A stretch of 64,000 bases of DNA from an uncultured Clostridiaceae bacterium (GTDB taxonomy: Bacteria; Bacillota; Clostridia; Saccharofermentanales; UBA5734): contig OW818697.1 in NCBI GenBank assembly GCA_942493365.1, positions 1,122,634 through 1,186,633 on the forward strand, written 5' to 3'. A program made the translations under genes and the position numbers. Below the pieces are notes generated by a model. That model was not told the DNA's origin, did not search any database, and was given only the letters and a program-made list of their open reading frames with translations. Shown here one piece after another: positions 55,304 to 57,060 of the stretch; the stretch's first letter is position 1, and each line of letters starts with the position of its first letter.

Positions 55304-55326
55304 AAATCGGCTTGCGCCGATTTTTT
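55304..55326 (+). terminator. terminator hairpin (module hairpin)
   Basis: AAATCGGC-ttgc-GCCGATTT followed by TTT, 2 nt after the stop codon. An identical 20-mer recurs at 57038-57057. Confidence 0.85.
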
Positions 55327-55372
55327 CAACTAACAACTAACAACGAACAACGAACAGTTGCGGAAATAATCC
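55327..55372 (+). repeat. heptad array + end box (plus orientation)
   Basis: CAACTAA x2 CAACGAA x2 CAGTTGC, then GGAAATAATCC. Confidence 0.9.
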
Positions 55373-55422
55373 TGATAATTAATCCAAACATGCGGTTTAG
55401 TGTTAGAAATGTTAAATAATAT

Positions 55423-55485
55423 GTGCAGTATAGTGTGAAATATGTCGAAAGAATCACACTAGACTGCACGTATTTGTGTTATACT
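55423..55485 (+). promoter_or_regulatory. imperfect 16-bp inverted repeat overlapping an extended -10 promoter upstream of the AAA ATPase gene
   Basis: GTGCAGTATAGTGTGA (55423-38) and TCACACTAGACTGCAC (55454-69) match at 15/16. TGtTATACT at 55477-85. Confidence 0.4.
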
Positions 55486-55514
55486 AATTTCATCAGTCGC
55501 CAGGAGGTGATCAG

Positions 55515-56816
55515 ATGGATCGAAAAATCGTCAAATATTTGATGGAATGGAAGAACAGTCCTTACCGCAAACCCCTGATATTGCAGGGCGCGCGCCAGGT
55601 TGGCAAGACCTATTCAATACTCGAATTTGGACGCGACCATTTTGAAAATGTCGCCTATCTCAATTTTGAAACAAATCCGATGCTGATCAGGACGTTTGAC
55701 GAAAGTATAGAACCGGCGGACCTGATCCCGTTACTGTCACGTCAGACCAATCAAACAATCATCAAAGAGAAAACCTTGATCGTTTTTGACGAAGTCCAGC
55801 TCTGCAAGCGGGCTTTGACTGCGCTCAAATATTTCTGCGAGCGAGCACCGGGCTATGTCATCATTGCCGCTGGCAGCCTGCTGGGTGTTGCCGTCAATCG
55901 TCAACAATTCTCGTTTCCGGTCGGTAAAGTCGAGATCAAAACATTGTATCCGATGGACTTTGAAGAATTTCTGCTGGCCTGTGGGAAAAAAGATCTTGTT
56001 GCCCGGATCAAAGATTGCTTCGAACATGATACCGCCATGCCCGCCTTGCTTCATGAGGCCGCGCTGAAATACTACCGCCAATTTCTGGTGGTGGGCGGCA
56101 TGCCAGAATGCGTCAGCAAGTTTTTGGCGACTCAGGATTATATTTTGGTGCGCCATACCCAGCAAATGATCTTGGCCAGCTATCGTGACGACATGAGCAA
56201 ATACAATTCGATCAATGAAATCAAAAAAACCAGATTGGTCTATGACAGCATAACCGTTCAACTCGCCAAGAAAAATACCCGCTTTCAGTATAAAATGATC
56301 AAAAGCGGCGGACGCGCATCGGAATTTGAAAATGCCATCGAATGGCTCTCGCTTTCCGGTATCGTCACGCGAATCTATCGGGTGGAACAACCCAAAAAGC
56401 CATTGGAAAACTATCGCGATATTGACTCTTTCAAAACCTATGTGTCGGATGTCGGACTGCTTTGTGCTAAAAAGAACATTGTGGCCGAAGATATCCTCTA
56501 TCTATCCAGCGAGCTTGACGATTTCAAGGGCGGTATGGTCGAAAACTATGTTTGCAGTCAGCTGACCGCCAATGAATACCCCTGCTATTTCTGGATGTCC
56601 GAGCGGGGAGCCGAAGTCGATTTTATCATCCAAAGGGACGGAAAAATTATCCCCATCGAAGTAAAAGCCGCCGACAACACTCGTTCGAAAAGTCTTGGCA
56701 TCTATATTGAAACGTTCAAACCGGAATACGCTGTCAAACTGTCAACCAGAAACTTTGGCTTTGAGGATGGCAAAAAATCGGTTCCGCTCTATGCGGCCTT
56801 TTGCATTTGTGATTGA
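55515..56816 (+). CDS. AAA+ ATPase with DUF4143 domain (COG1373-like)
   Basis: 433 aa. Walker A GARQVGKT, Walker B LIVFDEVQ. The C-terminal region resembles a restriction-endonuclease fold (EVDFIIQRDGKIIPIEVK). Confidence 0.8.
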   Translation: MDRKIVKYLMEWKNSPYRKPLILQGARQVGKTYSILEFGRDHFENVAYLNFETNPMLIRTFDESIEPADLIPLLSRQTNQTIIKEKTLIVFDEVQLCKRALTALKYFCERAPGYVIIAAGSLLGVAVNRQQFSFPVGKVEIKTLYPMDFEEFLLACGKKDLVARIKDCFEHDTAMPALLHEAALKYYRQFLVVGGMPECVSKFLATQDYILVRHTQQMILASYRDDMSKYNSINEIKKTRLVYDSITVQLAKKNTRFQYKMIKSGGRASEFENAIEWLSLSGIVTRIYRVEQPKKPLENYRDIDSFKTYVSDVGLLCAKKNIVAEDILYLSSELDDFKGGMVENYVCSQLTANEYPCYFWMSERGAEVDFIIQRDGKIIPIEVKAADNTRSKSLGIYIETFKPEYAVKLSTRNFGFEDGKKSVPLYAAFCICD

Positions 56817-56910
56817 TAATAATTTGGTTTACTGCACAAAATTCTATACCAAGGATTTTCGGGGAGATACAACAATGATCTCTCGAAACTTAAGGCTTTA
56901 CAATATTACA

Positions 56911-57060
56911 GGATTACACATCCGCAACTGTTCGTTTTTCGCTGTTCGTTGTTCGCTGAAAAGGCGGCCGCAGACGCCTTTTCCTAAGGATTACACATCC
57001 GCCACTTTTCACTTTTCACTTTTCGTCTTTCATCGAAAAATCGGCTTGCGCCGATTTTTC
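56911..57060 (-). repeat. two complete hairpin/heptad/end-box modules in tandem, minus orientation, abutting the ilvC stop
   Basis: The minus strand reads GAAAAATCGGC-gcaa-GCCGATTTTTC, then GATGAAA GACGAAA AGTGAAA x2, then AGTGGCGGATGTGTAATCC. The second module follows: GAAAAGGCG-tctgcggc-CGCCTTTTC, then AGCGAAC AACGAAC AGCGAAA AACGAAC, then AGTTGCGGATGTGTAATCC. Confidence 0.95.

Follow-up and report, generated by a model that had tools for sequence, protein, structure and literature searches.

Why does a lone ATPase gene lie between two intergenic repeat elements that face each other? The question is raised by a 64,000-nt stretch of DNA from an uncultured Clostridiaceae bacterium (GTDB lineage Saccharofermentanales; UBA5734), namely positions 1,122,634 to 1,186,633 of contig OW818697.1, which we refer to as "the window". 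Here, an AAA/DUF4143 ATPase gene separates the gene for an ABC-2 family permease from ilvC, the gene for ketol-acid reductoisomerase. On either side of it are "modules", gene-end repeats that typically comprise a hairpin, a tandem array of 7-nt units ("heptads"), and a short end box. A preliminary description, made from the sequence of the window alone, had proposed that junctions between facing boxes act as landing sites for inserted DNA or, alternatively, that module, cargo, and inverted module move together. We confirm the observation on which these proposals were built; the interpretation is partly supported. The explanation that we consider probable is that a cassette of the candidate defense family PDC-S01 occupies a hotspot of gene turnover, that the two boxes belong to the gene-end modules of its converging neighbors, and that the facing geometry is a by-product of convergence. 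Here, we describe the cassette, the hotspot, and the repeat family, and weigh this explanation against its rivals.

The ATPase cassette and its protein

The gap between the facing boxes (55373-56910) is 1538 bp long, and Pfam and open reading frame (ORF) analysis agree with the preliminary description that it holds only a promoter and a single credible gene. The features of this segment are as follows.

55395-55514, plus strand: promoter/operator region of the ATPase gene, which aligns with the DNA upstream of the ATPase gene of a relative
55418-55438 and 55454-55474: arms of an operator-like inverted repeat, 90% complementary, with a 15-nt spacer
55477-55485, plus strand: extended −10 element TGtTATACT, upstream of the ATPase gene
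55502-55507, plus strand: ribosome-binding site AGGAGG, upstream of the ATPase gene
55515-56816, plus strand: ATPase gene (433 amino acids), encoding an AAA_14 P-loop domain and a C-terminal DUF4143 domain of PD-(D/E)XK type
56856-56888: weak hairpin TTTTCGGGGAGAT..ATCTCTCGAAA, 3′ of the ATPase gene and lacking a T-run

The operator-like repeat, also picked out in the preliminary description, is real: besides the complementarity of its arms, it folds as RNA or single-stranded DNA with z = −5.3. Folding of the region downstream of the gene (56800-56940) is not significant (z = 0.04), and the earliest good plus-strand terminator past the ATPase gene is the hairpin of the facing ilvC module. No recombinase gene is found in the 1538-bp segment and no tRNA gene anywhere in the window; Rfam searches return no match at the gathering threshold across the window, nor one at E up to 1 within 55200-57150. 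We regard the 1.5-kb segment as an accessory cassette that stands alone, made up of one gene together with its promoter and an operator-like inverted repeat. A functional link between the ATPase and the neighboring ABC-2 or two-component genes was considered and rejected, because the gene has its own promoter and a different composition, and because the neighbors of its homologues are unrelated.

The two domains of the protein are recognized by Pfam as AAA_14 (residues 18-153; E = 5e-25) and DUF4143 (residues 225-385; E = 8e-36). Residues 1-431 also match positions 3-432 of the 439-position PADLOC profile PDLC04786 (PDC-S01) with E = 3e-173. Across 31 aligned sequences, a set of low diversity (75-81% identity to the query), the Walker A motif is mostly invariant (G25, G30, K31, T32), and Walker B D92-E93 and the residues D369...E382-V383-K384 are invariant. 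DUF4143 (COG1373) has been assigned to the PD-(D/E)XK superfamily, with its function unknown (PMC3424549). PDC-S01, which is also known as COG1373 ("predicted AAA+ superfamily ATPase"), joins an ATPase to a PD-(D/E)XK domain; according to the same published description, it ranks as the fourth commonest "defense" type in prokaryotes and has been transferred across domains (PMC12988326). The gene in the window is a new member of this known, very common family. It has the same two-domain architecture with catalytic-type motifs intact, and it shares the single-gene organization with its own promoter, the patchy cross-phylum distribution, and the location in a variable region. At the sequence level it is indistinguishable from the family; its function, like theirs, is a candidate one. 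Judged by this similarity, the ATPase is a candidate anti-phage protein from a single-gene candidate defense family. Sequence searches of NCBIfam and the PDB with the protein gave no matches, and hence no solved homologue by sequence; an AlphaFold2 model built from the 31-sequence alignment has a mean pLDDT of 52, with most of the C-terminal half below 50, and is too poor to use.

The composition of the gene departs from that of its surroundings. The preliminary description had judged it to be AT-richer than its flanks, and this holds: its GC content is 0.465 and its GC content at third codon positions (GC3) is 0.558, lower than in any of the 33 ordinary genes of the window (mean 0.732, standard deviation 0.047, minimum 0.639; z = −3.75). 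Codon usage sets it apart less clearly, since its synonymous-codon fit, corrected for amino-acid composition, ranks fifth of 37 (z = −1.8) and is atypical only to a moderate degree, and the raw per-codon likelihood does not single it out. The ABC-2, two-component, and ABC/FtsX/TetR neighbors are host-like in composition; for the ABC-2 permease gene, GC3 is a host-typical 0.74. Homologues that are 76-81% identical occur in Sporomusa, Lutispora, Desulfitobacteriaceae, Paludibacter, and a Patescibacteria metagenome-assembled genome, and homologues of the gene keep a GC content of 0.40-0.47 despite lying in loci that range from 0.36 to 0.56. Their contexts are unrelated and partly defense-like, with NTP_transf_2, AAA_15, and Mutator transposase genes beside the Sporomusa homologue and a FokI fragment in another locus (L101). 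A TAGTGT motif and the −10 element (TATAMT) upstream of the ATPase gene are also conserved in the Lutispora and Sporomusa loci; therefore, the promoter travels with the gene. Taken at face value, these comparisons indicate that the family circulates horizontally across phyla.

A hotspot between an ABC-3 permease gene and ilvC

The ATPase gene and its ABC-2 neighbor lie in a long interval between two conserved flanks.

42647-43462: ABC-3 permease gene, conserved left flank
43463-57060: variable interval of 13.6 kb between the ABC-3 permease gene and ilvC
54144-55301, plus strand: ABC-2 family permease gene, third and final gene of an ABC transporter operon (ABC2_membrane_3, E = 1.6e-25)
57061-58065, minus strand: ilvC, conserved right flank (Pfam KARI_N, KARI_C)

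Relatives suitable for comparisons of synteny were found through homologues of ilvC. Homologues at 96% and 87% identity keep ilvN and mscL as neighbors, within a conserved frame in which leuA..ilvB and the ABC_tran/ABC-3 genes converge on ilvC-ilvN-mscL. Inside this frame, five related genomes have five different contents.

L084/L085: 0 kb; the interval is empty, with the two genes 60 bp apart
L087: 5.3 kb; GH43, an IS605 OrfB gene, and a histidine kinase gene
L082: 8.3 kb; DEAD helicase, acetyltransferase, ATPase, and ABC/FtsX/TetR
L086: 9.2 kb; GH43, a sugar ABC transporter, and a two-component system
Window: 13.6 kb; two ORFs (one unknown, one YcxB-like), ABC/FtsX/TetR, a HisKA_3/LuxR two-component system, the ABC-2 operon, and the ATPase

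Therefore, the interval as a whole acts as a hotspot where genes turn over in this clade, and the ATPase gene is only the last gene in it. A search of genome contigs with the ABC-2 permease added no synteny information, its best homologue being only 51% identical. The most foreign-looking gene of the window is also found here: the YcxB-like ORF (44268-44825), with a GC content of 0.333 and a GC3 of 0.344, has no heptad modules beside it. Hotspots of integration or defense genes between conserved core genes are known from the pan-genomes of E. coli and Pseudomonas. They resemble this interval in having conserved flanks, cargo that differs between genomes, an empty state, and some cargo of atypical composition. 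Unlike them, this interval shows no integrase (no such domain in the scanned ORFs of 43.4-57.1 kb, by Pfam), tRNA gene, or att-like site, and its cargo consists mostly of transporters and regulators rather than defense genes. These findings support the view of the ATPase gene as a self-contained, compositionally foreign cassette in a region where gene content turns over.

One relative, L082, carries an ATPase gene of its own in this hotspot. Its ilvC protein is 96% identical to that of the window, and the DNA shared between the two loci is 72-82% identical. The two ATPases are 81% identical as proteins and 74% identical as DNA, the latter value being within the range of their neighbors. In L082, the gene does not adjoin ilvC; it sits between the acetyltransferase gene and the ABC/FtsX/TetR cassette, with no module adjoining it on either side. 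By synteny, the interval before ilvC is variable and can be empty, and the relative's ATPase gene does without flanking modules. Relatives with an 87%-identical ilvC have no heptad arrays in the regions read and, in agreement with the preliminary description, relatives in whose fetched regions no arrays occur lack an ATPase gene at this position.

A repeat family at gene ends

Three modules flank the cassette: M10 follows the ABC-2 permease gene, and M11 (distal) and M12 (proximal) follow ilvC.

55296-55331, plus strand: M10 terminator-type hairpin with a 16-bp stem that includes the permease stop codon, 94% complementary; loop TTGC; core 20-mer at 55304-55323
55327-55356, plus strand: M10 heptad array, CAACTAA ×2, CAACGAA ×2, CA (TRF: period 7, 4.3 copies)
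55357-55372, plus strand: M10 end box GTTGCGGAAATAATCC, a family member of CAGTTGCGGA-N5-7-AATCC
56911-56985, minus strand: M11, with box GGATTACACATCCGCAAC (56911-56928), heptads (56928-56958; CAGCGAA/CAACGAA/AAACGAA on the minus strand), and hairpin AAAAGGCGGCCGCAGACGCCTTTT (56959-56985)
56987-57063, minus strand: M12, with a box (56988-57005), heptads GTGAAAA/ACGAAAA (57003-57032), and a hairpin (57036-57060; 20-mer core 57038-57057)

The boxes, 20-mers, and gap named in the preliminary description are where it placed them, and they are not random. GGATTACACATCCGCAAC has a second copy with one mismatch at 56988-57005 (three matches at ≤3 mismatches versus 0.05 expected), and the 20-mer AAATCGGCTTGCGCCGATTT is exact at 55304-55323 and 57038-57057 (again three matches at ≤3 mismatches, versus 0.02 expected). 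The boxes do face each other across 1538 bp as imperfect inverted repeats. Indeed, the mirror symmetry is longer than had been noted, because the heptad arrays mirror each other too; the arms extend over 42 nt (55323-55364 and 56921-56962) and are 88% complementary. The outer hairpins require a correction. They are identical, as claimed, over 22 nt (AAATCGGCTTGCGCCGATTTTT) and 93% identical over 27 nt (55304-55330 and 57038-57064), but they are direct repeats and not mirror images: the loop is TTGC on the plus strand in both, even though the modules to which they belong are inverted. The right-hand copy lies beyond M12. M11 and M12 form a 77-nt tandem duplication (74% identity); each ends with TTTTCCTA, CTA being the stop codon of ilvC, and the duplication carries a stop-codon copy. 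No other facing pair shows outer hairpins in direct repeat; gene conversion or an insertion scar could explain them.

A scan for consensus terminators found none in 55200-57200; its rule requires that a T-run follow the stem, and in these hairpins the run is contained in the stem. Strong hairpins were found by folding where the scan gave none: the stretch containing the M10 hairpin (55290-55380) folds at −24.4 kcal/mol (z = −6.5), and the M10 heptad array is predicted to be unstructured. In a separate observation, the hairpin AAAAGGCGGCCGCAG(C/A)CGCCTTTT is common, with one mismatch, to modules 26 kb apart (30986-31010 and 56959-56985), which indicates that hairpins can belong to the repeated unit instead of being independent terminators.

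The same architecture recurs throughout the window. The order is gene stop codon, mostly a hairpin of the A-tract/stem/T-tract type, 3-15 heptads that are purine- or A-rich on the sense strand, a junction, the box, and often a second hairpin. Heptad units include CAACGAA, CAGGTAA, AAGCTAA, GAYGAAA, GGTGAAG, and AGTGAAA; box-anchored alignment shows a conserved junction (acagtt, then GCGGA), followed by 5-7 nt and AATCC. Arrays lie after or between genes, with the purine-rich strand nearly always being the sense strand. Period-7 arrays number 12 in 64 kb (18.8 per 100 kb), compared with 23.5 per 100 kb in the relative; in other Bacillota loci, which amount to 1.47 Mb, the density is 0.14 per 100 kb, ~130 times lower than in the window. 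Detected positions include ~10070, 28651, 30926, 36744, 51453, 51910, 55327, 57003, 61331, and 62883, with shorter arrays at 28434, 30777, and 56928; arrays in L082 are at 1299, 5856, 6177, 9230, and 16165.

Modules occupy corresponding sites in the window and in L082, after leuD, ilvB, and ilvC. The leuD-leuB array (36744-36870; L082 1299-1345) has 14.6 copies of AACAGGT in the window versus four of CAACGAA in L082. Module position is stable; array content turns over. The leuD-leuB array ends in CAGTTGAGGAG (in L082, CAGTTAAGGAG), 8 nt before the leuB ATG in the window and 7 nt before it in L082. A Shine-Dalgarno sequence thus stands in place of the GCGGA box, suggesting a role at the RNA level or co-option of the module. 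After ilvC in L082, the array directly follows the stop codon with no hairpin before it, and a terminator comes only past the box; for this reason, the modules are probably transcribed. The same arrangement led us to reject the possibility that box, heptads, and hairpin form a small RNA gene, since the L082 array runs into the ilvC stop codon without a hairpin.

The modules that frame the cassette are ordinary members of this family. The L082 module directly after ilvC is the positional counterpart of the box at 56911, and M11 aligns with this L082 module, including ~20 nt past the box. M10 is 97% identical over 30 nt to the ilvB module of L082, a match at least equal to that between M10 and M11; because M10 matches the relative's ilvB module as well, the inverted repeat around the ATPase gene reflects family resemblance. 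The family itself has no Rfam match, and no description was found in the literature searched. A module 21-mer (CGAACAACGAACAGTTGCGGA) has no match in viral contigs, and its one metagenome match was dismissed as a chance match within a high-GC coding region. In our assessment, the family is lineage-specific, and its modules are not demonstrably the ends of mobile elements.

Two further loci involve modules. In the stretch from the two-component genes to the ABC-2 operon, direct repeats sharing a box, T-rich heptads, and TCATCCGACTCATYACCAT (51450-51955) flank an ORF for a 24-amino-acid hydrophobic peptide (~51713-51787) with a hairpin; the left repeat (51450-51560) reads (GAAAGAT)×9, box GGAATGATAATCC, TTTCAT.., and the right one (51899-51955) reads box, (CTTTCAC)n. 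At 41357-41840, ilvB is followed by a decayed module and, immediately beyond that, by a minus-strand ORF for a 143-amino-acid membrane protein (41409-41840; GC content 0.468, no Pfam match), the stop codon of which lies within the decayed box.

A heptad array in the window has been entered by a mobile element. A frameshifted IS110-family element (61363-62882, minus strand; Pfam DEDD_Tnp_IS110 and Transposase_20) sits inside a (GGTGAAG)n array, the flanking parts of which lie at 61307-61362 and 62883-63045, with a CT dinucleotide at both junctions. Its protein cluster has four member sequences on the source contig, and related copies in other genomes (L099 and L100) share its ends. The 5′ non-coding scaffold is conserved as GGCGCTGTGGACYGGTT, a variable stretch, and ACCGC, and in all three copies the variable stretch equals the left target flank: TTCACCCT in the window, TTCTCCT in L100, and TCTCTCCT in L099. 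The L100 and L099 targets are reverse complements of ribosome-binding sites. IS110 elements are guided by bridge RNAs (PMC11208160), and the co-variation of variable stretch and target is the pattern expected of such guidance. By this sequence criterion, a heptad array is a programmed target of at least one mobile element, in an event that does not involve the ATPase gene.

Short intergenic repeats that are targeted by IS110-family elements have a precedent in the REP/BIME elements of Gammaproteobacteria (PMC11208160; bioRxiv 10.64898/2026.03.19.712850). Like the modules, these are found at gene ends, often as inverted pairs, and can have an IS110 element inserted in one of them. REP/BIME elements, however, are palindromes of 20-40 nt, whereas the modules combine a hairpin, a tandem 7-nt array, and a box in a Bacillota host; no RAYT-type transposase, as found with REP/BIME elements, is seen in the window. 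Intergenic heptamer arrays are also familiar as the STRR heptamers of cyanobacteria. Intergenic repeats of the heptamer TAACTGA occur in Beggiatoaceae, Cyanobacteria, and Bacteroidetes (PMC4679880). The arrays described here share with these the tandem intergenic 7-nt unit, as well as an occasional position directly upstream of a ribosome-binding site, as between leuD and leuB. By contrast, the unit here varies among arrays (CAACGAA, CAGGTAA, GAAAGAT, GGTGAAG), and the arrays, most of which are 3′ of genes, come with a hairpin and a conserved end box and frequently form facing pairs.

Convergence, capture, or mobility

The explanation that we consider probable needs no property of the modules beyond their place at gene ends. 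The facing boxes would be the 3′-end modules of the ABC-2 operon (plus strand) and of ilvC (minus strand), each made up of a presumably bidirectional terminator-like hairpin, purine- or A-rich sense-strand heptads, and a box (CAGTTGCGGA..AATCC). Modules face each other because the transcription units converge, and anything between converging gene ends lies between boxes. By horizontal transfer, the cassette would have reached the hotspot before the lineages of the window and L082 separated, and local rearrangement would have brought it to its present slot, e.g., a tandem duplication of the ATPase gene together with ABC/FtsX/TetR and differential loss thereafter; an inserted two-component/ABC-2 block may also have contributed to that slot. 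The protein would be an ATP-driven nucleic-acid nuclease, its expression putatively controlled at the inverted repeat.

Several observations weigh against this explanation. If the neighbors were simply unrelated, one would not predict that outer hairpins 1.7 kb apart should share 22 identical nt in direct orientation. Facing pairs also occur where no genes converge: one (28457-28650) lies between two plus-strand flagellin genes, and one in L082 (5829-6215) precedes a plus-strand gene; facing pairs could thus constitute units by themselves. In addition, the AT-richer ORF at 41409-41840 (GC3 0.556) abuts a decayed box, and at the corresponding site L082 has the pair at 5829-6215, with a 275-bp non-coding center between the boxes. 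As for the history of the cassette, the distance between the two ATPases (0.184) is close to the all-pair median (0.187), which makes their sisterhood weak, and on that ground they may have been acquired independently. Defense activity of PDC-S01 is likewise unproven; for one representative, there is no reported protection of E. coli (E. coli B) against T4, T5, or T7 (PMC12881386).

The hairpin repeat, the non-convergent pairs, and the AT-richer ORF lend some weight to the possibility, which we nevertheless regard as unlikely, that facing modules form a foldback-type repeat whose center or flanking hairpins are preferred sites of recombination, and that the ATPase gene was captured there. The 42-nt inverted repeat that brackets the cassette would fit such a history, as would the 22-27-nt direct hairpin repeat at its outer borders, facing pairs outside convergent contexts with variable centers of 89, 162, and 275 bp, the ORF beside the decayed box at 41409, and the IS110 element whose guide-like segment matches the array in which it lies. 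We are similarly doubtful of the corollary that the 22-nt hairpin duplication is the scar of an insertion into a bidirectional terminator once shared by the permease gene and ilvC. It is hard to reconcile capture with the relative's ATPase gene, which has no flanking modules, or with M11, which occupies the position of the relative's own ilvC module. M11 and M12, moreover, arose as a local 77-nt tandem duplication that includes the copy of the ilvC stop codon, and identical outer hairpins are found in no other facing pair. The YcxB-like ORF, the most foreign gene of the hotspot (GC content 0.33), lacks modules, and the cassette lacks a recombinase. Box-box junctions as landing sites are thus unsupported, the boxes being ordinary family members. 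For a broader version, in which the modules are a new foldback intergenic repeat whose arrays and centers are insertion sites, as the IS110 element shows for one array, and gather passive cargo (the PDC-S01 gene and the 41409 ORF), the 22-nt hairpin being a scar, we see only a slim chance. A composite unit of module, cargo, and inverted module that moves jointly, in the manner of a foldback transposon or a trans-mobilized cargo-bearing miniature inverted-repeat transposable element (MITE), is far less probable still. Its sole support is the geometry, i.e., long imperfect terminal inverted repeats of tandem sub-repeats around a central segment, as in those elements, together with the flanking direct repeat. 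Foldback transposons and MITEs differ from the arrangement here, which offers no evidence of mobility, typical target-site duplication, or multiple copies of the unit, and in which the arms differ in unit type and number. No second copy exists in the window or in the relative's loci (64 kb and ~27 kb, respectively), and in facing pairs the two arms vary freely in heptad sequence and copy number. The modules are old and stable, as judged from their corresponding sites in genomes in which the DNA of shared genes is only 72-82% identical. Furthermore, viral contigs lack the module 21-mer, and the only candidate transposase belongs to the unrelated frameshifted IS110 element, which lies 5 kb away and has its own distinct ends. 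Joint movement, the second proposal of the preliminary description, is accordingly left unsupported, with neither a second copy in the DNA read nor a recombinase in the segment to its credit.

A different alternative concerns the origin of the ATPase gene rather than the modules: the window lineage and the relative may each have gained a PDC-S01 gene, the copy in the window recently and at a neutral spot between converging gene ends. The two proteins are scarcely more similar to each other (80.8%) than the window's is to those of Lutispora and Sporomusa (79.6%), compared with 96% for ilvC; the copies occupy different slots of the hotspot; and the GC3 of the gene is still 0.17 below that of host genes. 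Against this, the two ATPases are reciprocal nearest neighbors and neighbor-joining sisters, and both are within the same ABC-3/ilvC interval. Some 120 bp of upstream non-coding DNA is also alignable between the genomes (L082 9882-10000), the alignment starting exactly at the acetyltransferase stop codon in L082 and 22 bp past the box in the window. Lastly, the GC content of the copies shifts with that of their hosts (genes, 0.465 versus 0.404; loci, 0.56 versus 0.52). We therefore think separate acquisition improbable; common descent of both ATPases, followed by local rearrangement, is favored but not proven.

Seen as a gene-content finding, a member of a common, uncharacterized candidate defense family in a strain-variable hotspot is routine. 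The geometry of the cassette derives from the surrounding repeat family and not from the ATPase gene, and the cassette, ~1.4 kb with promoter, operator-like repeat, and gene, is a clean natural unit for testing PDC-S01. More unusual is the repeat family, which is confined to this lineage and whose heptads change fast at corresponding sites. If the modules do steer DNA insertion, they would represent a new class of gene-end repeat linked to genome plasticity.

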